This document shows positions 1 through 56,832 of a stretch of DNA of 64,000 nt, one piece after another. This DNA comes from a virus. The translations under genes were made by a program, and so were the position numbers. Location of the stretch: IMG/VR virus record IMGVR_UViG_3300045988_156211; one strand, written 5' to 3'. Position 1 is the stretch's first letter. Every line of letters starts with the position of its first letter. The notes under the pieces were generated by a model that ran no database searches, was not told where the DNA came from, and saw nothing but the letters and a program-made list of their open reading frames with translations.

Positions 1-320
1 TTGGATTGTTTTAAGAAGAAGTAAGTGGCTAAATCCAAATAACCTCTGTCTGTAATATAGCCTTCACCCTTATCTATGTATGAACGGTATAATTTAGACC
101 TAAGATTCAAAAGCCTAACGTCATCCATATACAATTCTTTAGGATCCTTAGATAGCATATCCAAATGACTTACATCTTTTGTATCCGGTATTAGATCAGA
201 CATAGAACTAGATATGAAATGAAGCTCGTCCTCCATACCAATATAACCTGGTAAATCTTTAGATAAAGTGGTTTTACCAATACCACTTGGGCCTGATATT
301 TGTATATATCTTTTACACAT
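1..320 (-). CDS. P-loop nucleotide/deoxynucleotide kinase-like protein (N-terminal part; C-terminus lies beyond window start)
   Basis: Absent from the ORF track because the window edge truncates it. ATG is the complement of cat at 318-320. Own translation is MCKRYIQISGPSGIGKTTLSKDLPGYIGMEDELHF..., with Walker A GPSGIGKT. It starts 3 nt after the stop of the upstream gene (323). Confidence 0.55.
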   Translation of the reverse strand, partial: MCKRYIQISGPSGIGKTTLSKDLPGYIGMEDELHFISSSMSDLIPDTKDVSHLDMLSKDPKELYMDDVRLLNLRSKLYRSYIDKGEGYITDRGYLDLATYFFLKQS

Positions 321-322
321 AG

Positions 323-1216
323 TTATTTATTATATAAAGTTATAAATGGTTTTATAAAGTCTATAGTAAGAAAAGACATGAGTGAGTATGAGATACATAG
401 CTTTTTAAACTTGTCCTTATTTATGGACTTATTTACATATACCATGGGCATTTCAGATAATGGGTATGTATCTATAAAATACCTAAGATCTATAAGCTTC
501 TTATTTATTTCGGATATATCTTCTATGTTTTCTTTACATCCTTGTTTTAAAGCTTCATTAATACTACCATACTTATCTAAGAATTTACGGGTTTTTACAG
601 GACCCATACCTTTTACACCGGGTATATCATCTGAACTATCTCCAACTAAAGATAAGTAATCTACGGTTTCTTCTGGAGAATATCCAAACTCTTTCATACA
701 GGTTTTATCATAGATAATCTTCTCTTTCCTGGGATTGAATATCTTAAGGTTTTTACCTAATAACTGGTTGAAGTCTTTATCGGAGGATATAAGGGTTATC
801 TTATTATTATCCTTATTATATACCTTTAATACTAAAAAAGCCAGTAAATCATCTCCTTCATAATTTGTAGCCTTATGTTCATCATATACATAAGGTACTC
901 TCAATAACTTAAGTATCTTAAGTATCACTTTCTTTTGAGATTGTAGTGATTCATAATCTATAGAGATATTTTTACGATGACCTTTGTAATTTGGCAATAA
1001 ACAAGTCCTATATGGTGAATGGCCATTATCAAACGATATAGTTACTTCATCAGGATCAAACCTTCTAAGGTACATATTTAAGGATTTAAAAAATCCAAAT
1101 ATAGCTCCTGAAGGTTTACCGTCACTAGACCTTAGATTAGCAAACTTATGAAATGATTGATGGAGTATGTTTTCTCCATCAATCAATAGTACCTTTTTAT
1201 TCTTATGATTTTTCAT
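323..1216 (-). CDS. 5'-3' exonuclease / flap endonuclease (FEN, RNase H-like)
   Basis: N-terminal LLIDGENILHQSF and C-terminal LVGDSSDDIPGVKGMGPVKTRKFL match the PIN plus helix-3-turn-helix pattern (GDxSDNIPGVxGIGxKTA) of Pol I-type 5' nucleases. Confidence 0.85.
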   Translation of the reverse strand: MKNHKNKKVLLIDGENILHQSFHKFANLRSSDGKPSGAIFGFFKSLNMYLRRFDPDEVTISFDNGHSPYRTCLLPNYKGHRKNISIDYESLQSQKKVILKILKLLRVPYVYDEHKATNYEGDDLLAFLVLKVYNKDNNKITLISSDKDFNQLLGKNLKIFNPRKEKIIYDKTCMKEFGYSPEETVDYLSLVGDSSDDIPGVKGMGPVKTRKFLDKYGSINEALKQGCKENIEDISEINKKLIDLRYFIDTYPLSEMPMVYVNKSINKDKFKKLCISYSLMSFLTIDFIKPFITLYNK

Positions 1217-3267: not shown

Positions 3268-3657
3268 TTATTTGTTGTTCTCAATATAAGCTATCTCATT
3301 CAATGATAAAATAGTTAAATTATTATCACTTAGCAGATGTTTAAGATCATCCGGGAATATTTCCAACGGCAATGATAGTTCCTTACCAGCATACAAACCA
3401 TAAGTAATTATACTTCCTACTTTTAAGGTTTTTTTCAAAAAAGCCTCATCTTCGGTTATACTACTAATCTGGATGATTACTCCCTTTTTTGGTTTACTAT
3501 TATCGGCATTACCCGGGATAATAATACTACCACTCTTACTTTCTCCTGTAGGAGAAAGTATCAACACCTTATTTTCACTTGGTACTCCATGACTGGATAA
3601 GATCTCATTGAAACGTAATGCTTGTTCAACGCTAATGTAATTTAAATTTATGTTCAT
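3268..3657 (-). CDS. GroES/Cpn10-like co-chaperonin
   Basis: Pattern VLILSPTGESKSGSIIIPGNA...KKGVIIQ...LKVGSIITYG...LTILSLNEIAYIE parallels GroES (mobile loop, GxVxAVG, VGDxV, ILAIxE). Size is 129 aa. Confidence 0.55.
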   Translation of the reverse strand: MNINLNYISVEQALRFNEILSSHGVPSENKVLILSPTGESKSGSIIIPGNADNSKPKKGVIIQISSITEDEAFLKKTLKVGSIITYGLYAGKELSLPLEIFPDDLKHLLSDNNLTILSLNEIAYIENNK

Positions 3658-3687: not shown

Positions 3688-4140
3688 TTAAAAGTTCATC
3701 TTCCTTAGATTGGCATTCAAAGTTCTCAAAACCTCTATACGATTCTCATAAGCTCTACATAAAGATATAAACTTACTAGCTTTCTCACAAGCCTGTATGT
3801 ATCTTTCGCAAAGTGATAAGTATTTAGAGTTAGTTTTGGATTTATTATCTACATAATCATTATTCCATCTAGCATTGGCTTCTTTATAGAATATCCAAGC
3901 ATTAGAATAAGCTTTATCCCTTTCAATAGCTAGAGTATCTCTTTTCTTTATAAGATAATCTCTTACAGTACTCAATATAAACAAGTTAAATGAGGAATCT
4001 CTTAACTGAGTTTCTATATTATTCTTATCTATATGAAATTCTTTAGAGACATCTATATAATAGGTTTTACCCTCTACTTTTACTTTTACGGGTTTTATAC
4101 CTATATCCTTTATATTATGGGTTACTACAGATTTTTTCAT
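3688..4140 (-). CDS. hypothetical protein
   Basis: 150-aa ORF translationally coupled to the polymerase gene (4-nt overlap). No recognisable motif. Confidence 0.6.
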   Translation of the reverse strand: MKKSVVTHNIKDIGIKPVKVKVEGKTYYIDVSKEFHIDKNNIETQLRDSSFNLFILSTVRDYLIKKRDTLAIERDKAYSNAWIFYKEANARWNNDYVDNKSKTNSKYLSLCERYIQACEKASKFISLCRAYENRIEVLRTLNANLRKMNF

Positions 4141-6437
4141 AGATCCTTATCATGTTTATGGTATATTGATTCATACTTGTCCATAAGTTTTGGAAATTTA
4201 TCTGGATATTCCTTAATACTTATAGATTTATACTTCTTATGCTCTTGAAGGTATTCCTCTACTGAGAAATCTGGTTGAAGCATTTTGTTATAATCATATC
4301 CCGGGATAAATGGTAATTCTTCAGCCATAGTCCTACCAACTGAATAATCCATATCCATTTCAACATCATCAATCTGAAAACCGAAGTATGGCTCTGTTAA
4401 AGGGTTTTTAAATATTTGCCACATCTTATTTACAGTCCATACATTTATATCTTTAGGATCAGCATTATAATATACAGCATCATGAACTGTAGCAACTTCT
4501 TTCATATAGGGTAGTTTTCCTTGTCTCATATCCCAATATATAAGGATACTACCAAATAAGGTCATATCAGATGCTGGAGATTGACATGGGAAGTTTAGTC
4601 CCAATCTTACTGCATAAGCTTCCTCATCACTATTTTCAGAATATATTTGAGGTAATCTACGTCTTCTACCAAATAAAGACATAAGATATCCATGCTTCCT
4701 TAAGTATATTTCCTGTTTCTCTTTAAACTCTCTTAATTTTGGATGTTCATTAAAGTATTCATCCATTTCTTTTTGAGCTTCTTGTTTAGAAACTATAATA
4801 CCAGCTTTTGGATCTGACAACTTAACTGCTAATAGATTTGCTCCGATACCATATATCAATCCAAAAGCAGTTTGCTTAGCATTCTTTCTGCGTATTTTCC
4901 AAAGAGTATGTTCAGGATGTTGTTCATCATCATATATTGCAAAAGCTTCATCATATGGTACTTTATATTTTTTAGCAGCAATAGCTAAGTGTGGATCTTG
5001 TCCTTCTGCAAATGCTCTTAGATAAGTTTCATCTCCAGATAGATGAGCCATCATTCTTAATTCTGCCTGAGAGAAATCGGATTCGAAGTATAATTTACCT
5101 GGTTCGGCTACTAATTGCTTCTTTATATTTGGGTCTACCGTAGTTTTAGGTATTTGCTGCATATTAGGTTCAGCAGATGATAATCTACCAGATGTAGTAC
5201 CATGAATAAGATATCGGCCATGTAATCTGTGATCATCCTGATATTTTTCACTCCATCCCAAGATATAGGTTTTATACATTTTTTCCAAACCTCTTAATTC
5301 AAGTAGGTTATCCAGGAATATTGCTTTGGGTGAATCAGGGTTTTTTATCTTTAACCTTAAGTTTGATAGAGTTTCCTCATCCGTACTGGGTTTACCTTTA
5401 TCCGTATATTTCAAAACTGGGAATTTAAATCCTTCATCACTATACATAAGTTGAGGTAAATCATTATTACTGTTTAGATTTACTCCTCTTGTCAGATCTA
5501 ATTCCTTTTTAGAATTATATATCCCAGCTTTAATATTGGATATTTTAGTCAATCTATTAGCTATTTTCTTTTCATTAGAACTGCCATCTGATTCTTCTAG
5601 TTCTTCAATTTCTTTTTGGATAGATTCTATATAGTTACTTACTTTAGTATCTACTAGATATTTACTAAATCTTTTAACCTTTGGCAAATTATAAATATTC
5701 TCATAGGCTTTCTCTATTTTAGGTTGATAATCCTGTAAGAGTTTTTTATTAAATTCAGTATCTATATACAAACCATTCCTTTCAACACATTGAATAACCC
5801 TTGAAGCAGGCATTATAAGATTCCTGAATAAATTGTAAAATCCCAGTTTAATCAGCTTATTCTCTAAGAATATACATAACCTAAAAGTATAATCACTATC
5901 CTGACATCCATATTTACATAGGGGTTCTAATTCCTTTTTATCCCAGGGTATCTTATCGAAATTATCCTGTTTCTCATAATCCCCATATTCAGGTAAATAT
6001 CTCCTAACCATACTTTTAAGATCGTTAGGCTTCTCTTCATTAAGAACATATTTAGCAAGCATACCATCTATAACAGTACCTCTATACCAAATATTATATC
6101 TATCGAATATCTGAAAGTCAAATTTTAAGTTCCAACCCAATTTAACTACTCTGGGATTTTCTATAATATGCTTACCAAAAATTAGCAAAGCTTTTCTCCA
6201 ATTATATCCTTTATCAGTGTACTGTTTTGTCTGAAAATGATCTAAAGGGATAGAACAACCCATACCTGGTTGAAAACATACCGATAGTATAGTTGGTTTA
6301 AAGGTATCATTATATATGGGTTCACTGTTAGTTTCAAAGTCTACAGATGAATATCCAGTAGACTTACAAGCTCTAATTAATTTGTAAAGCTCTTTATAGT
6401 TTCTTATTATGTGATATTTAGTTTCCATATATAACAA
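4137..6437 (-). CDS. family A DNA polymerase with 3'-5' exonuclease domain
   Basis: Exo I is VDFETNS. Pol motifs are TSGRLSSAEPNMQQIP, DFSQAELRMMAHLSGD (motif A), RRKNAKQTAFGLIYGIG (motif B) and VHDAV (motif C). Confidence 0.95.
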   Translation of the reverse strand: MLYMETKYHIIRNYKELYKLIRACKSTGYSSVDFETNSEPIYNDTFKPTILSVCFQPGMGCSIPLDHFQTKQYTDKGYNWRKALLIFGKHIIENPRVVKLGWNLKFDFQIFDRYNIWYRGTVIDGMLAKYVLNEEKPNDLKSMVRRYLPEYGDYEKQDNFDKIPWDKKELEPLCKYGCQDSDYTFRLCIFLENKLIKLGFYNLFRNLIMPASRVIQCVERNGLYIDTEFNKKLLQDYQPKIEKAYENIYNLPKVKRFSKYLVDTKVSNYIESIQKEIEELEESDGSSNEKKIANRLTKISNIKAGIYNSKKELDLTRGVNLNSNNDLPQLMYSDEGFKFPVLKYTDKGKPSTDEETLSNLRLKIKNPDSPKAIFLDNLLELRGLEKMYKTYILGWSEKYQDDHRLHGRYLIHGTTSGRLSSAEPNMQQIPKTTVDPNIKKQLVAEPGKLYFESDFSQAELRMMAHLSGDETYLRAFAEGQDPHLAIAAKKYKVPYDEAFAIYDDEQHPEHTLWKIRRKNAKQTAFGLIYGIGANLLAVKLSDPKAGIIVSKQEAQKEMDEYFNEHPKLREFKEKQEIYLRKHGYLMSLFGRRRRLPQIYSENSDEEAYAVRLGLNFPCQSPASDMTLFGSILIYWDMRQGKLPYMKEVATVHDAVYYNADPKDINVWTVNKMWQIFKNPLTEPYFGFQIDDVEMDMDYSVGRTMAEELPFIPGYDYNKMLQPDFSVEEYLQEHKKYKSISIKEYPDKFPKLMDKYESIYHKHDKDL

Positions 6438-6471: not shown

Positions 6472-7248
6472 TTAATATTTATCTACTAATTCTGACAGAT
6501 CTCTACTGAGCTCATTCCAGTCTTTTTTGTAAGCATGTAGAGAATCTATATTATGGTATAAGTAACCAGGTGTAATACCTATTTCCTTAGCCACATAATT
6601 CTTTAATCTCCAAGCCAAGTATACATCGTTACCGAAGTGTTGGATATAATCTGAAGACCTTTGATTATAGATCATATGAAGTACCTTTCCTCCGCCTATG
6701 TTCTCTCTTACTAAGAAGTGATAATACATTGAACAGGGTATTCTTCTAGAACCGTCAATATAATCCTTATCTATAGTTGTATCCCATACACTTAATATTG
6801 CTTTACGAGTATCTGGATCATCCTTAAGTAATTGTATCACATTGTCAATGTAATTATTCCAACCACCCTTATAAGAGGCTAAATCATTAAACCTCTCATT
6901 ATAGGTATAATCAAATACTCCGTGATCATTACCTCTATCTACCAAGAATTGTTCCCAAAGATCTCTTCTTTCTTTCCAAGCTTCTCCTGGGTTTATAAAG
7001 TTTCTATTTATTCTCTCATTAAATTCGGCTTTAGCCCAATCATATGAATGAGAGAATGTGAACAACCAAACTGGATCACCCATATCTACCAAACAATAAG
7101 ACTGAGCTATTATCTCCTTGGTTATATAATCCTCATTACCCTCAATGTCTTTATTCTGGTAATGTTTAGGTTTTACAGTAATACCGTAACTCCTTAATTC
7201 TCGGCCCATTTCGGACATGAGCTCGAATGAATCTCCAAATATTCTCAT
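6472..7248 (-). CDS. divergent thymidylate synthase (ThyA)-fold pyrimidine nucleotide C5-transferase (synthase, hydroxymethylase or methylase)
   Basis: IDNVIQLLKDDPDTRKAILSVWD, the catalytic-Cys motif IPCSMYYHFLV, YNQRSSDYIQHFGNDVYLAW and IDSLHAY align with ThyA motifs (DPxSRR, PCH, QRSxD..PFN, GDxHxY). The N-terminal third is atypical. Confidence 0.75.
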   Translation of the reverse strand: MRIFGDSFELMSEMGRELRSYGITVKPKHYQNKDIEGNEDYITKEIIAQSYCLVDMGDPVWLFTFSHSYDWAKAEFNERINRNFINPGEAWKERRDLWEQFLVDRGNDHGVFDYTYNERFNDLASYKGGWNNYIDNVIQLLKDDPDTRKAILSVWDTTIDKDYIDGSRRIPCSMYYHFLVRENIGGGKVLHMIYNQRSSDYIQHFGNDVYLAWRLKNYVAKEIGITPGYLYHNIDSLHAYKKDWNELSRDLSELVDKY

Positions 7249-7288
7249 AGTTTTATTGATTTTTTATTGTTTATAAATAGCAAATCAC

Positions 7289-8227
7289 CTATTCTTTACT
7301 GTTAGAGTTATTCTTAGCTTCTCTTTTCAGCTTAGCCAGATATTTTTTCTTATAGGCTTTTCTCTGTGAGAAGCTTATAATATTCTCGGGATAATCAATA
7401 TCGTCTTCCTCTATTACTAAATCCTTAGCATACAAAGGTTTGTAAGTATATAGGTCCGGTCTAAGTACTTTAAAACTTCTAAAGTATACCTTGAATGAAG
7501 AGAAGTCCTTTTCATCTCCCTTCTTAAACTTATCAAATACTGACTTAACTTTAGTTACCCAGGGATTATCTATACCCTTTAATACCTTCTTAAGTGATTT
7601 ATGAGTATGGTACATTATAAGAGTTTCGGTATTACCATACATCTGAGTAGCAAATACATTTAGCTGTACGGACTGATTAGGCCCATAAATATATTCTGCC
7701 ATTCTCTGAACCAATAAGAAATCAAATATAAGCCTCTTAGTAATTTCTGAAGCTCTTAATACCATAGTTATTACCGGTATATCTTCCTGAAATCTTTTAG
7801 AGAATGTAGCCGATATTAGGCATTGCTTACCATTATCATGCTTATTATTGAAGATGTAACTTACATTATAATTCTGATTATACTTTACTTTTAAGAATCT
7901 TAACTTACTTCTAAGTAAATCTAGCTTGTTAAAATCAATATAATTATTCAGCAAGCTTGACCATTTAGAACTTGTATAGTTAAAACATCTACCATAATCA
8001 AATTCGGGATCAACCCAGGCTTTCCTTATTCGGATAAATACGTTATATACTACGGCTAATCCACTGTTTGCTATAGCTCCTTTACTAAATAATGATGGGT
8101 TTAACTGTAAGAAGTACTCATTGAGTTTTTCCCATGCCTCTTGAGAGGTAGAGAACTCCAGAGTATGTATATTCTCTGAACAATCCATGTTCTCTAACCC
8201 CTCTAATTGTTTATTCCATCCAGACAT
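7289..8227 (-). CDS. hypothetical protein, possibly a second very divergent ThyA-fold paralogue
   Basis: GKQCLISATF ... VLRASEITKRLIFDFLLVQRMAEYIYG ... VFATQMYG loosely mirrors the Cys, QRSxD and terminal-Tyr motif order of ThyA. This is weak by-eye similarity only. Confidence 0.3.
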   Translation of the reverse strand: MSGWNKQLEGLENMDCSENIHTLEFSTSQEAWEKLNEYFLQLNPSLFSKGAIANSGLAVVYNVFIRIRKAWVDPEFDYGRCFNYTSSKWSSLLNNYIDFNKLDLLRSKLRFLKVKYNQNYNVSYIFNNKHDNGKQCLISATFSKRFQEDIPVITMVLRASEITKRLIFDFLLVQRMAEYIYGPNQSVQLNVFATQMYGNTETLIMYHTHKSLKKVLKGIDNPWVTKVKSVFDKFKKGDEKDFSSFKVYFRSFKVLRPDLYTYKPLYAKDLVIEEDDIDYPENIISFSQRKAYKKKYLAKLKREAKNNSNSKE

Positions 8228-8228
8228 A

Positions 8229-9077
8229 TTAATAATTCGTTTTTAATCTCCAAATGTTTAACTTATACTTCTTAAAGTAAAGATTGGTTATACTATAAGG
8301 ATCAAATCCATACATCTTAAGAAAACCCATAAATAGATAGAAAGCCTCTACGATATAACTCTGAACCTCGTTTTCTTTGGTTAATACCTGAGTTTTCTTC
8401 CATGGTCTACACTTAAGATCATTTCTAGCCATATTAAGGCAATATGTTATACTAAATATGGCTAATTTCTCCGTTCGGTGATAACCATAATTCATACGAC
8501 TAAATCCCGGGATATATTCACTATCGGAAGATGTTTGGTAATCTACTATATCATATGGAGCCGTAGTTACAGCATAATCATCCATCTTACTTATAAGTAA
8601 ATCACGTCCAACAGCCATTACCTGGTTTAAGTTAGTACATACCTTAGTTACATGCTTACCTGACCATCTTAGTAAATCATCACTACCAATGTTCAAATAA
8701 AGAAGGATAGTCATCATGAATCCCAAAGCATCAGCCTGTTCTTCACAAGCATTTTGCAATGTATCCTTTATATACTGGGTGCTTTCATCATCCAACCTAT
8801 CCATGTTCCATCCGATAGAATCATTGTTCAATAACTGATATACAATATCGGTAGATTCAAATCCCTCATTTAGTTCCTCTATAACCCTACTTATAAAATC
8901 CTTTATAACCTCCTGATTACGAGGTATATTGATATTCATTGGGTAATCAGGTAATTGTTCTATACCACTATCTTTATAAGCTTTAAGTTGTTCTTTAGCT
9001 ATATCGAATATAGTTTCTAAAAAATTTAGATTATAAGGATCTATCGGTAATTTTTCTTTAATATTGCGTATATCCAT
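8229..9077 (-). CDS. all-alpha NTP pyrophosphohydrolase-like protein (MazG / dimeric dUTPase / dCTPase-like)
   Basis: Acidic helix motifs RVIEELNEGFES and ACEEQADALGFMMTILLYL, then CRPWKK, resemble the EExxE...ExxD metal-binding helices of all-alpha NTP-PPases. Neighbours are nucleotide-metabolism genes. Confidence 0.45.
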   Translation of the reverse strand: MDIRNIKEKLPIDPYNLNFLETIFDIAKEQLKAYKDSGIEQLPDYPMNINIPRNQEVIKDFISRVIEELNEGFESTDIVYQLLNNDSIGWNMDRLDDESTQYIKDTLQNACEEQADALGFMMTILLYLNIGSDDLLRWSGKHVTKVCTNLNQVMAVGRDLLISKMDDYAVTTAPYDIVDYQTSSDSEYIPGFSRMNYGYHRTEKLAIFSITYCLNMARNDLKCRPWKKTQVLTKENEVQSYIVEAFYLFMGFLKMYGFDPYSITNLYFKKYKLNIWRLKTNY

Positions 9078-9082
9078 AGCGA

Positions 9083-9862
9083 TTAAAGTTTTTCAGTTGA
9101 AACTCCAGACCCCATACCGTTTGTTCCTCTATCACTCTCCTTTGATAGTCTATCATAAGATGTATCGGTAGTTTCCAATAATATACTTCTAATATAGGGT
9201 ACATGTAAGAATTGTATAAGTCCCTTATTCTTAGCATAAGTAGCCATATCCAAAGTTATGGGCTTATCACTGATATTAGCTAATCCAATATGTATCTCCC
9301 CCGTATAGTCAGCATCTACTACTTCTGCAGTAAATATAAGACCATTATCGGTAGCCATACCAGATTTATTCTTAGCCAATAGACAAGTACCTTTGTCTAC
9401 TATCCATACTCTTATACCTGAAGGAATAGAAACTCTTCCATTTGGTCTGATAACTATGTTATCCACTTCTCCAAGTAGATTAGTATTGATCAGACAATGA
9501 CGGTATTTAATTATATCAGAAGGTTTTAGTACTGGCATAAAGAAATCTATACCAGCATCGTTCATACAGGCTCTTCTTGGACATTTTACTTCCCTTAATC
9601 TGGTGAAGTAAATCATATCTGATTCTCTAACTGGCTTTAAATCATCATGGAGATGAATTACATTATCATTTTTTCTTTTGCTAACCATGTCTTCATTTTT
9701 ATTATTTGTTTCTAAACTACCATCTCCAACAAAATCAAGTCTACTAATAAATTCCTCTTTTCTCTTAGCCCGATTCTCTCGATTTTCTTTAGAGATAGCC
9801 TCAATATCTTTATAAAAATTAATATACTTATATTTCAGACGTTTAACTCTTCTTGTTACCAT
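9083..9862 (-). CDS. dut: trimeric dUTPase with a roughly 90-aa basic N-terminal extension
   Basis: All five dUTPase motifs are present: NDAGIDFF, AKNKSGMA, VVDADYTGEIHIG, GLIQFL and DRGTNGMGSG. The start is uncertain (20-nt overlap with the upstream ORF; internal Met candidates exist). Confidence 0.85.
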   Translation of the reverse strand: MVTRRVKRLKYKYINFYKDIEAISKENRENRAKRKEEFISRLDFVGDGSLETNNKNEDMVSKRKNDNVIHLHDDLKPVRESDMIYFTRLREVKCPRRACMNDAGIDFFMPVLKPSDIIKYRHCLINTNLLGEVDNIVIRPNGRVSIPSGIRVWIVDKGTCLLAKNKSGMATDNGLIFTAEVVDADYTGEIHIGLANISDKPITLDMATYAKNKGLIQFLHVPYIRSILLETTDTSYDRLSKESDRGTNGMGSGVSTEKL

Positions 9863-10256
9863 ATAAGTCTCTGTATATTTTCCTTACATCCTTAGCAGGT
9901 ATTTCGAATTTCTCAGAGCATTTATTTATTATCTCCCTACGAGTATATTCGTCTTTCCTCTTTAACCTACGAATGTATTTCTTTAACCCGGGTATATCTA
10001 TTAGGGTATCGAGATCTTTATAGTGATTCTTATCCTCTAATTCCTTTCGAGTTATATTTAAGTTTTGAGACATTTTAAAAGCACATAATTCAGAATCGCC
10101 GCACATCTTACATTCTGAAGTACTTAGATCGTAATTTTTACCAAAACAAGGATCTCCATTAGAACCTATATCCTTTATGTTTATAGGTTCTAAGGGATCC
10201 TGTTTTGTAAGATCTAACATTTTTTTCTTTTTATTAGTCTTACCTATAGAACCCAT
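9843..10256 (-). CDS. hypothetical Cys-cluster protein
   Basis: 137-aa ORF with DPCFGKNYDLSTSECKMCGDSELC (a possible zinc knuckle) and a basic C-terminal half. Confidence 0.55.
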   Translation of the reverse strand: MGSIGKTNKKKKMLDLTKQDPLEPINIKDIGSNGDPCFGKNYDLSTSECKMCGDSELCAFKMSQNLNITRKELEDKNHYKDLDTLIDIPGLKKYIRRLKRKDEYTRREIINKCSEKFEIPAKDVRKIYRDLYGNKKS

Positions 10257-10260
10257 AATA

Positions 10261-10803
10261 TTATGATATCTTTAGATCATACTTATAGATTACGTGAACA
10301 ATTCCGGACCACATACCGTCTTCTTTGCTTACCTCTTCATAGTATTCTGAACCAACCAGTGGACTTGGTAAACCATAGATAGTGTATAGCTGATTATTAA
10401 GCTTAGCATCTATCAACTGATTCTTAATACGAATGAGATCTTGAAGATTCAACAAGGATAGAGTTAATACCATGTTATCATATACAATGCTAAACCGGTG
10501 AATAGTAAATGGTCCAAGTTTAGAACCGCTTATACTGGTTACAAACCTAAAACCAGGATCAATAAATATATTATTGCATACATCTATCTGGTTATTCACC
10601 TGTTCGACCTTTTCTTTTAGATCTTCCTTACTCTTAGGATCTATTTCCAATTCGGTTACCTCACCACCTATAACATTGAAGGTCTCTCCGCATTTTTTAC
10701 AGATAATGCTTACCTTATTATCTGAAGGACTAATTGTAACCCCATTTTCAGTACCGCATTTTGGGCACTTAAAGAATGATTTTTGAAATTTGCTCATGTT
10801 CAA
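10261..10803 (-). CDS. zinc-ribbon protein
   Basis: CPKCGTEN...N17...CKKCGETF is a CxxC-N-CxxC ribbon at the N-terminus. 180 aa. Confidence 0.55.
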   Translation of the reverse strand: MNMSKFQKSFFKCPKCGTENGVTISPSDNKVSIICKKCGETFNVIGGEVTELEIDPKSKEDLKEKVEQVNNQIDVCNNIFIDPGFRFVTSISGSKLGPFTIHRFSIVYDNMVLTLSLLNLQDLIRIKNQLIDAKLNNQLYTIYGLPSPLVGSEYYEEVSKEDGMWSGIVHVIYKYDLKIS

Positions 10804-54848: not shown

Positions 54849-55316
54849 TTACTCAATAGTTATGGTTATTTTATCGTAATTTACTAACTCATCGTGATAC
54901 AATTTCTTTAGAGTATCCTTAGAATTGATTACCTGACCTACTACTTTGTTTTCTCCAACCAATATACATCCCTCGGTATCCTTGGGAGTATTACCTGAAT
55001 GTATAAGTATGCCATCAAATCCCGGGACATTTAGTAATCTTGGCACTCTACCTCCATTCATATTGGTTTTGTACCAAGATACCTTAGAATACTTAGGGGA
55101 TACAACCGATAAAGTTACATCGTAAGTACCTTTTGGGATAGCTGTTTCTCCTTTTTTCTTAGTACTCTTGATATCATTTAGAGGCATTTCACTGTTTAAA
55201 CCACGATCTTTATCCTCCAAAGTATCACAAAAATACTTACCATTAAGATACAGGTGACCTATAGTATACTTGTCTTTACGGGCCACCCTCTTTAATACCA
55301 TTTTTAACTCTTTCAT
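54849..55316 (-). CDS. putative cell-wall hydrolase (DUF5675 / YkuD-like H-x-G-N...G-C core)
   Basis: RLLNVPGFDGILIHSGNTPKDTEGCILVG. I prefer the start at M22 (55316) or M27 (55301), because the track start at 55379 runs into the divergent promoter region. Confidence 0.5.
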   Translation of the reverse strand: MKELKMVLKRVARKDKYTIGHLYLNGKYFCDTLEDKDRGLNSEMPLNDIKSTKKKGETAIPKGTYDVTLSVVSPKYSKVSWYKTNMNGGRVPRLLNVPGFDGILIHSGNTPKDTEGCILVGENKVVGQVINSKDTLKKLYHDELVNYDKITITIE

Positions 55317-55376
55317 ACCTATAAATTTTATATTATAACATAATACGAACATATAGTCTTGCCTTGAACTTAGCTC

Positions 55377-55445
55377 CAATCCTCAGCTATTTTTATAAAA
55401 ATGTCTGTATTTATTTGCATATATAAAATATTTATATTAATTTTG
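55377..55445 (+). promoter_or_regulatory. Bacteroidota-type promoter with conserved 26-bp upstream box
   Basis: It has the same 26-bp box, then TTTG (55414-55417), N20 and TAATTTTG (55438-55445). The ATG is at 55474. Confidence 0.7.
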
Positions 55446-56373: not shown

Positions 56374-56832
56374 ATGCAAGTATTTATACCTTATGCACAA
56401 CCAATAGATGTTGCACAAACTCTATGGAATGATCAAAAACGTTATAATAAACAGATAATAGAATGTATTCAGATACTAAGAGCTATGGATGGACATACAG
56501 CTTGGTCTAATCATCCTGTAGTTAAGATGTATAAAAATAACCGTGACTGGTTAGTATGTTATGCTAAATGCCTTAGTAGTTATCGTCTATTTAAGGAAAC
56601 TGGAGATAGGAAGTATATAGGTGAAGCCAATGCTTGGAATATTAATGCTGATAGCTGTAGACCTGACTTTATAAATAAGGATGAGATAATTATTCAACAT
56701 AGAAAGAGACTTTATACAAAAGCTCCAGAATTATATCCTCAGTTTAGTAAGTATGGTACTAGTGATATAAATTATTACTTCGTAGATGGTAAAATCTTAA
56801 AATACAGAAATGGTAAACTCATAGAAGAGTGA
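56374..56832 (+). CDS. pyrimidine-dimer DNA glycosylase-family-like protein (weak)
   Basis: MQVFIPY..IDVAQTLWNDQKRYNKQIIECIQILRAMDGHTAWSNHPVVKMY resembles the LD..RL..Q..E...IL.....W.nHP...M pattern of that family. By-eye only. Confidence 0.35.
   Translation: MQVFIPYAQPIDVAQTLWNDQKRYNKQIIECIQILRAMDGHTAWSNHPVVKMYKNNRDWLVCYAKCLSSYRLFKETGDRKYIGEANAWNINADSCRPDFINKDEIIIQHRKRLYTKAPELYPQFSKYGTSDINYYFVDGKILKYRNGKLIEE

Follow-up and report, generated by a model that had tools for sequence, protein, structure and literature searches.

A probable cytosine-modification cassette with a second, deeply divergent ThyA-fold protein in the replication module of a gut phage

The DNA considered here is a 64,000-nt stretch (the window) of the virus record IMGVR_UViG_3300045988_156211, derived from a contractile-tailed phage of low GC content (~32%), and the region under study, positions 6,472 to 9,862, is part of its replication module. 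All genes of interest lie on the minus strand, and a block of four is read from 9862 to 6472. In transcription order, the block encodes a trimeric dUTPase, an all-alpha NTP pyrophosphatase (P3), a protein of the thymidylate synthase (ThyA) fold that is deeply divergent in sequence (P2) and a recognizable ThyA homolog (P1), and is directly followed by a family A DNA polymerase (PolA). A preliminary description of the sequence had placed four open reading frames (ORFs) here, and all four were recovered at exactly the same positions (Table 1). Overall, the block is best regarded, with reasonable but not strong confidence, as a T4-type pre-replicative cytosine-modification cassette in a Flandersviridae/Gubaphage-like gut myovirus.

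P1 was first described as a ThyA-fold protein on the basis of its PC, QRSSD and DSLHAY motifs, all of which are present, and it matches the Pfam family Thymidylat_synt (PF00303) with an E-value of 7e-17 (61.9 bits, against a cutoff of 24.3). Its best sequence match in the PDB is MilA, a CMP hydroxymethylase (1.7e-8). Residue equivalences were taken from ungapped HMMER alignments with MilA and S. aureus ThyA, from a BLASTP alignment with T4 gp42 and from a nine-sequence MAFFT alignment, all of which agree. Cys172 of P1 corresponds to C146 of ThyA and C148 of T4 gp42, Asp200 to the pterin-binding D169 of ThyA, Ser173 to H147 and Arg169 to L143. Asp208, in the motif FGND, falls on the base-specifying N177 of ThyA and on D179 of T4 gp42. 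The BLASTP alignment sets FGND208 on FRND179 and IPC172 on FMC148, and both the Asp and the Cys of the gp42 type are thus found in P1. Asp208 is invariant in 12 P1 homologs, and the preceding Asn207 varies (N, S or D); therefore, the N-D dipeptide first noted at this site resolves to an Asp at the base-specifying position. In an alignment with E. coli ThyA, T4 gp42 and Xp12 gp59, residues C172, R197, S198 and D200 of P1 are invariant, as are the columns for ThyA W80, Y94, R126, C146, R166, S167, D169 and H207.

An Asp at position 177 switches the specificity of ThyA from deoxyuridine monophosphate (dUMP) to deoxycytidine monophosphate (dCMP), and positions 177 and 147 best separate the ThyA homologs on modified-cytosine contigs from all others (PMC8670742). 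Asp at 177 together with a residue other than His at 147 is the mark of modified-cytosine contigs (PMC8670742; PMC13326640), and among Pfam domains the Asp-type ThyA homologs show the strongest association with such contigs (PMC8670742). Judged by these residues, P1 is a predicted cytosine-type, folate-type ThyA-fold enzyme. It lies below all NCBIfam equivalog cutoffs for thymidylate synthase (64.9 bits against 174.55 for the best, at most 47 against 108–427 for the others), and it departs from a canonical dUMP thymidylate synthase in having Asp208 instead of Asn and Ser173 instead of His, and in lacking the C-terminal tail. About 20 residues follow the conserved His in P1, as in T4 gp42, whereas E. 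coli ThyA and Xp12 gp59 have more than 55 there. In ThyA, the C-terminal segment closes over the folate cofactor for hydride transfer. Because this tail is missing from P1, the favored product is 5-hydroxymethyl-dCMP rather than 5-methyl-dCMP.

In contrast to P1, P2 gave no match in sequence searches of Pfam, NCBIfam and the PDB, and none of 49 homologs gave a match in Pfam. An exhaustive HMMER search recovered a P2 family of 136 clusters at 50% identity. An AlphaFold model based on an alignment of 49 diverse homologs reached a predicted local distance difference test (pLDDT) score of 92.2 and a predicted TM-score (pTM) of 0.87, whereas an earlier run with only 17 close homologs had reached a pLDDT of 57. 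When the model was compared with the PDB by Foldseek, all of the top 50 matches were ThyA-family structures with a probability of 1.00, and what had been suggested as a possible second ThyA-like protein is borne out at the level of the predicted fold. Cytosine-specific enzymes rank first among these matches (E-values 2e-5 to 8e-4), led by the dCMP hydroxylase of phage HY126 (AfhB; 2e-5), MilA (7e-5) and the T4 dCMP hydroxymethylase (1e-4). The TM-scores to ThyA-family structures are moderate (0.35–0.57), attributed to ~110 extra C-terminal residues that form helices. A search of the BFVD viral models returned the ThyA-fold picture again, with gp48 of Pseudomonas phage PMBT14 among the matches (2.6e-8).

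Residues Y84, K88, W89, L92, Y96, C136, R158, R165 and D169 are invariant in the 49-member P2 alignment, and E161 is nearly so. Among them, Y96, C136, R158 and D169 are kept from the gut phages through Clostridium, Pseudomonas and Mycobacterium phages at an overall identity of only 18–20%. An hhalign comparison with the P1 family pairs C136, R158, E161 and D169 of P2 with C172, R197, D200 and D208 of P1; by this weak alignment, the Cys nucleophile and the R166-type Arg of ThyA would be retained in P2, along with the Y94-type Tyr, an acidic residue where the pterin binds and the base-specifying Asp. In a set of 80 related IMG/VR loci, the median identity to the window protein is 76% for P2, 68.5% for PolA, 61% for P1 and 44.5% for P3. 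Purifying selection thus acts more strongly on P2 than on PolA, and catalytic-type residues are preserved, which argues against a decaying copy. The confident model suggests that P2 is a deeply divergent ThyA-fold protein of a family without prior characterization, and no paper describing this family was found in the open-access literature searched. Instead of a weak echo of ThyA, as its motif order had first suggested, P2 is a strongly conserved and apparently catalytic partner of P1, and probably a second enzyme acting at C5/C6 of cytosine. The longer members of the family contain no informative fusion domain, their extensions being of low complexity. Searches for related loci with 12 P2 sequences returned close relatives only, and a search with one divergent member returned none; two contigs encoding divergent members are only 1.4 kb each, and the genomic context of divergent members was taken from GenBank phages.

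P3 belongs to the Pfam family dUTPase_2 (PF08761; 8.7e-6, 26.5 bits, cutoff 22.9) and matches a PHROG family of NTP pyrophosphohydrolases (8.9e-13). The acidic motifs typical of all-alpha NTP pyrophosphatases, EExxE (residues 67–71) and EExxD (112–116), are invariant in its family, in agreement with the class first assigned to it; the individual invariant residues are E67, E68, E71, E112, E113 and D116, together with K269, K270, N274, R277 and Y282 at the C-terminus. The preliminary description had named, as findings that would count against its proposal, an ordinary dUMP-specific synthase at P1 and a P3 unrelated to NTP pyrophosphatases, and the profile searches returned neither. Sequence and profile searches of the PDB with P3 gave nothing significant, and neither did pairwise BLASTP against the T4 dCTPase-dUTPase gp56. 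By hhalign, P3 aligns with gp56 over the C-terminal 44 residues only (E-value 1.4e-4, probability 52%), and both proteins end on Tyr. Compared with a shorter Clostridium phage homolog, P3 has an insert of ~80 residues (130–215).

The neighboring gene encodes a trimeric dUTPase, as originally assigned: the protein matches Pfam dUTPase (PF00692; 3.7e-6, 27.2 bits, cutoff 22) and the PHROG dUTPase family (1.2e-20), and a PDB search retrieved 33 trimeric dUTPases at E-values of at most 0.01, with no matches other than dUTPases. The five dUTPase motifs are present with small deviations (AGID at 103, NKSG at 165, VDADYTGE at 182, LIQF at 215 and RGTNGMGSG at 245). Its score lies below the NCBIfam equivalog cutoff (49 against 103), and its N-terminus carries a basic extension of ~100 residues (1–100) without a family match. 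Because a separate trimeric dUTPase stands beside P3, P3 would have another specificity, most simply for deoxycytidine triphosphate (dCTP).

The two remaining components are a P-loop gene at the left edge of the window and PolA. The P-loop gene starts at 320, as previously reported, and encodes a Walker A motif (GPSGIGKT, residues 10–17) and a DRG motif (91–93). It is cut by the window edge, and its full length, 261 residues, is given by a 98%-identical relative (L003:16932-17717). The 261-residue form aligns weakly with the PDB deoxynucleoside kinase 8puu (0.0013) at both the P-loop and the DRS motif, and no match was found in PHROG or NCBIfam. By these motifs, it is a candidate kinase for the modified deoxynucleoside monophosphate (dNMP). 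PolA matches Pfam DNA_pol_A (2e-67) and DNA_pol_A_exo1 (4.7e-17), and its position directly downstream of P1 makes it the presumptive consumer of the modified triphosphate.

Table 1. Positions of the genes discussed, within the window
Feature	Position	Strand	Evidence
Trimeric dUTPase, 259 residues, first gene of the block	9083..9862	-	Pfam dUTPase, PHROG and PDB matches, motifs
P3, all-alpha (MazG / dimeric-dUTPase-type) NTP pyrophosphatase, 282 residues, putative dCTPase	8229..9077	-	Pfam dUTPase_2, PHROG
P2, deeply divergent ThyA-fold protein, 312 residues	7289..8227	-	AlphaFold model and Foldseek
P1, Asp-type, C-terminally short ThyA homolog, 258 residues, putative dCMP C5-hydroxymethylase	6472..7248	-	Pfam Thymidylat_synt
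Family A DNA polymerase (PolA) with 3'-5' exonuclease domain	4137..6437	-	Pfam
P-loop dNK/dNMP-kinase-like protein, N-terminal 106 codons, cut by the window edge	3..320	-	Walker A, DRG
DNA C5-cytosine methyltransferase, 339 residues	53523..54542	-	Pfam DNA_methylase, motifs

Homologs of P1, P2 and P3 were found on hundreds of contigs, the longest mostly of ~82–88 kb, and a relative 98% identical to the window, on an 82.6-kb gut-metagenome contig, has the identical gene order. A megablast search of the region against GenBank phages gave no match; the closest GenBank records are uncultured human-faecal phages from Ireland. Beyond these relatives, three cultured phages keep the order kinase, pyrophosphatase, P2, P1, followed by PolA directly or past one to three short genes. 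In Clostridium phage P21, a P-loop kinase, a P3 homolog (BLASTP 6.6e-14), a P2 homolog (hhalign probability 99.4%, E-value 1e-21) and a P1 homolog are followed a little further on by PolA, and among cultured relatives its ThyA homolog comes nearest to P1 (39% identity). Pseudomonas phage PMBT14 encodes a thymidylate kinase, a nucleotide pyrophosphohydrolase, gp48, the "thymidylate synthase" gp47, a dCMP deaminase and PolA; gp48 aligns with the P2 profile by hhalign (94%, 8e-8) as well as by fold, gp47 has Asp-Asp at the key site, and the P2-like and P1-like genes overlap by 4 bp. Mycobacterium phage Muddy has, in this order, a thymidylate kinase, a "dUTPase", a P2-like protein (hhalign 77%, 2e-5), a P1-like protein (BLASTP 7e-21) with His-Asn-Asp at the key site, one small gene and PolA, of which gp46–gp49 correspond to L090:3771-6443.

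Adjacency of P2 and P1 was further established from coordinates in Serratia phages Serbin, Tlacuache and Opt-155, Pseudomonas phage Lebethron, Yersinia phage P744, Brevundimonas phages and two spring-water viral contigs. In the carriers found among Clostridium, Pseudomonas, Serratia, Yersinia, Brevundimonas and Mycobacterium phages, the P2-like gene lies directly upstream of the P1-type gene, and about 81 Gordonia phage records match in the search with P1. Searches of the phage collection with P2 or with PMBT14 gp48 gave no match in T4, and no P2-like gene lies next to the ThyA homolog of Xp12. By these comparisons of sequence and gene order, P2 and P1 form a fixed cassette in many distant phage lineages.

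Both Irish gut phages carry two P2 paralogs and one P1, that is, three ThyA-fold genes in a row (MT121964, 6000-7767; L086:8986-11585), and both paralogs retain the Cys, Arg and Asp. In MT121964 (Phage DP SC_6_H4_2017), the P1 homolog and PolA are separated by an insertion (9154-10774) that encodes an IspD-family cytidylyltransferase (Pfam 1.4e-26) and a LicD-family phosphotransferase (8e-39). Benler et al. (2021; PMC8008677) take the ispD and licD insertion to act on host lipids or the cell wall (isoprenoids or teichoic acid). Its position beside cytosine-modifying genes raises another option, namely that a hydroxymethyl group on the DNA might be decorated by a phospho-alcohol activated with cytidine diphosphate (CDP). 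PolA is longer in these phages, with 1092 residues in MT121964 (10895-14173) and 1421 in the other Irish phage (L086:13245-17510) compared with 766 in the window, and the PolA matches fall into two or three separate blocks, a pattern suggestive of inserted inteins or homing endonucleases.

How would such a cassette work? P3 would hydrolyze dCTP to dCMP, and the trimeric dUTPase would keep dUTP out of the pool. P1 would then use methylene-tetrahydrofolate to place a one-carbon unit on C5 of dCMP, the substrate class being backed by its residues, and quenching of the exocyclic methylene by water would give 5-hydroxymethyl-dCMP. The P-loop kinase would raise this product to the diphosphate and the host NDP kinase to the triphosphate, which the adjacent PolA would incorporate. 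P2 would be an obligatory partner of P1-type enzymes, most likely carrying out a further or parallel reaction at C5/C6 of the cytosine nucleotide, or else serving as the second subunit of a P1–P2 complex.

The preliminary description had left the modified base as C or U/T. Since P1 and, by the weak hhalign alignment, also P2 have Asp, not Asn, at the N177 position, this narrows to cytosine. Complete replacement of cytosine is a different matter. The window encodes a DNA C5-cytosine methyltransferase (Pfam DNA_methylase 1.6e-11; NCBIfam dcm superfamily 5e-9) that is intact by its motifs, with motif I (GVCAGQGA), IV (PDC), VI (ENL) and VIII (QxRxR), and this enzyme would lack a substrate if every C bore a C5 substituent. 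Substitution of cytosine may thus be partial, or the methyltransferase may have other DNA as its target or work by a different chemistry.

Besides this methyltransferase, several observations weigh against the proposed cassette. An acidic residue at the L143 position of ThyA goes with hydroxymethyl products (PMC13326640) and is thought to admit water. This residue (D145 in T4) is absent from P1, whose Arg169 is invariant in the P1 family, is shared by the homologs of P21, PMBT14 and Muddy, and fits neither the hydroxymethylase nor the ThyA pattern. The L143 position is no clean predictor of product, because the presumed methylase of Xp12 has Asn there. The sequence link between P2 and the P1 family is weak (hhalign probability 5.8%, E-value 0.0066), and the P2 active-site equivalences rest on this alignment and the predicted structure. 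The Arg-Arg pair that clamps the phosphate for the partner subunit (ThyA R126/R127) is not found in P2, where hhalign aligns Leu112 and Lys113. The 261-residue form of the P-loop protein has its Pfam matches below cutoff (dNK 0.0037, 17.5 bits against 27; AAA_28 0.0013), and the kinase was recovered in one of the 80 related loci, at 35% identity, most of the loci stopping short of it. Finally, the product of P1, the substrate of P3 and the composition of the virion DNA are what we infer from genes.

Among known systems, T4 (gp56, gp42, gp1) is the closest in logic, and the gene set fits the analogy drawn from the outset. In both systems, an all-alpha NTP pyrophosphatase, the end of which aligns weakly between P3 and gp56, is combined with a ThyA-fold enzyme that has the Cys and the Asp of position D179 and is short at its C-terminus, and with a P-loop nucleotide kinase, putative in the present phage; the shared logic would be to drain dCTP and rebuild it in modified form. 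However, the identity of P1 to gp42 is no more than 26% across 120 residues, with Arg in place of Asp145. The genes are contiguous here and lie upstream of a family A polymerase, whereas the T4 polymerase is of family B, and a separate trimeric dUTPase, P2 and a DNA C5-methyltransferase are present. No glycosyltransferase was found among the window ORFs scanned, as the preliminary description had also noted; the window leaves ~20 kb of the genome uncovered.

MilA, from the mildiomycin pathway of Streptomyces (PDB 5b6d/5jnh), is the best solved sequence match of P1 and the second-best fold match of P2, and has Asp at the base-specifying position; unlike P1, it is a bacterial antibiotic-pathway enzyme of 325 residues that prefers the ribonucleotide and has Asp at the L143 position. 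The 5-hydroxy-dCMP synthases (RB69 gp48, DLP3 gp80 and HY126 AfhB; PDB 9iqu/9iqc) share the ThyA fold and are dCMP-specific through Asp177. They use flavin and O2 and are marked by Asn at ThyA position 169 (D169N; PMC13326640), whereas P1 has Asp200 and P2, at the aligned position, Glu161, and an assignment of P1 and P2 to this class was rejected on that ground. The likely hosts here are gut anaerobes. Xp12 resembles the present phage in having a ThyA homolog with Asp at 177 within a nucleotide-metabolism gene cluster, and differs in that gp59 retains the long ThyA C-terminal domain, that dihydrofolate reductase (DHFR) and dCMP deaminase genes lie just downstream, and that a P2-like partner is lacking.

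In genome organization, the phage is most like the 'Flandersviridae' (Gubaphage), for which the consulted passages of Benler et al. (2021; PMC8008677) describe a contractile tail, human-gut origin, a module of DnaB, primase and PolA, and an ispD and licD insertion in the replication module of some members; relatives of the window reach the same range of ~82–88 kb and include carriers of that insertion. Those passages contain no account of a pair of ThyA-fold proteins or of DNA modification.

Which role does P2 play, if not that of an enzyme? It might be a non-catalytic ThyA-fold subunit or regulator, which either pairs with P1 as a heterodimer to complete or tune it or serves as a decoy for host ThyA, and we regard this as unlikely while giving it real weight. 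In the weak hhalign alignment, P2 is without the Arg-Arg pair that is donated to the partner's phosphate site; it is always encoded directly upstream of P1, with the 4-bp overlap in PMBT14, and some relatives have two P2 paralogs for one P1. Against this stands the invariance of Cys136, Arg158, Asp169 and Tyr96 across lineages at 18–20% identity, a pattern not easily accounted for unless P2 is catalytic or binds nucleotides specifically.

A more speculative extension of the proposed cassette, which we put forward tentatively and hold to be doubtful, is that P1 and P2 jointly make an undescribed cytosine derivative. P1 would form 5-hydroxymethyl-dCMP or the exocyclic methylene, and P2, through Cys-at-C6 chemistry, would exchange or extend the C5 substituent while the base is still in nucleotide form; in the relatives with IspD and LicD, the hydroxymethyl group would be further decorated by the CDP-activated phospho-alcohol. 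If true, this would be a new reaction class for the ThyA fold, present in abundant gut phages and in cultured phages including Muddy.

Two further explanations are improbable to a similar degree. In one, P1 would be a dCMP methylase of the phage XP12 kind, in a pathway to 5-methyl-dCTP and 5-methylcytosine DNA. Asp at N177 is by itself enough to make ThyA a dCMP methylase (Liu and Santi, 1992; Hardy and Nalivaika, 1992, as cited in PMC8670742), and P1 does not have the Asp or Glu typical of hydroxymethylases at the L143 position. Nevertheless, P1 is missing the ThyA C-terminal segment that the Xp12 homolog keeps, the ORFs scanned yielded no DHFR gene, in contrast to Xp12, where one lies two genes downstream of the ThyA homolog, and Xp12 is without a P2-like gene.

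In the other, the cassette would alter nucleotide pools and cytosine would be replaced partly or not at all, the outcome being a minor or site-limited modification, or the starving or poisoning of host replication, with protection left to the C5-methyltransferase. The intact methyltransferase in the window is in line with this, as is another named in the GenBank record of a relative, and such phages assemble well from ordinary short-read metagenomes (PMC8008677). The association of Asp-type ThyA homologs with modified-cytosine contigs (PMC8670742) speaks against it. Moreover, the cassette is translationally compact and lies directly upstream of the replicative polymerase, with the kinase in four distant lineages, which is the arrangement needed to feed a polymerase. 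DNA containing 5-hydroxymethylcytosine also sequences normally.

That P1 is an ordinary dUMP-specific thymidylate synthase, in a block for routine dTTP supply (dUTPase, synthase and thymidylate kinase) with P2 as a degenerate duplicate, would agree with the database labels of P1 homologs ("thymidylate synthase") and of their neighbors ("thymidylate kinase" or "dUTPase") but is very hard to sustain given the invariant Asp at the base-specifying position, Ser or Thr in place of His147, the missing C-terminal tail and scores far below all thymidylate synthase equivalog cutoffs.

The T4-like logic and the use of Asp-type ThyA homologs as markers of cytosine modification are already known. Apparently undescribed, in that no account was found in the open-access literature, are the subclass to which P1 belongs, short at the C-terminus and with Arg at 143 and Ser or Thr at 147, its constant partner P2 and the fixed order kinase, pyrophosphatase, P2 and P1 upstream of PolA. 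The same literature yielded no paper on DNA modification in Flandersviridae, PMBT14, C. perfringens phages or Muddy. Many labels such as "thymidylate synthase", "thymidylate kinase" and "dUTPase" in the database records of such phages are probably mis-assigned. A C5-modified cytosine, if present, would affect resistance to restriction and CRISPR, enzymatic library preparation and nanopore base-calling, in phages that are among the commonest in the human gut. As Muddy is cultured and has been used in patients, the question of modification is directly testable on cultured phages, and P2 is a candidate source of new pyrimidine chemistry that might also serve as an enzyme tool.

The surroundings of the block are those of a replication module. 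Upstream of the dUTPase gene, in transcription order, lie an SF2 helicase gene and three small genes without known function. Downstream of PolA follow genes for a 150-residue protein of unknown function, Cpn10, a gp32-like single-stranded DNA-binding protein, RecA and a 5'-3' exonuclease, and then the P-loop gene at the left edge; the exonuclease gene (323-1216, minus strand) is distinct from the P-loop gene starting at 320. The phage-encoded Cpn10/GroES homolog occupies 3268-3657 on the minus strand (Pfam 1.2e-7). Near the methyltransferase gene, a DUF5675 / L,D-transpeptidase-like protein is encoded at 54849-55379 on the minus strand (1e-29). A T4 endonuclease V-like pyrimidine-dimer DNA glycosylase is encoded at 56374-56832 on the plus strand (Pfam Pyr_excise 2.1e-8), although UV damage is not expected in the gut. 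Beyond the left window edge, the related contig that supplied the full-length kinase continues, after the kinase gene, with genes for an SbcD/Mre11-like phosphoesterase, an SbcC-like ATPase and a PD-(D/E)xK nuclease (L003:17729-20777), and nucleases of the SbcCD and PD-(D/E)xK kinds could have a role in the degradation of host DNA.

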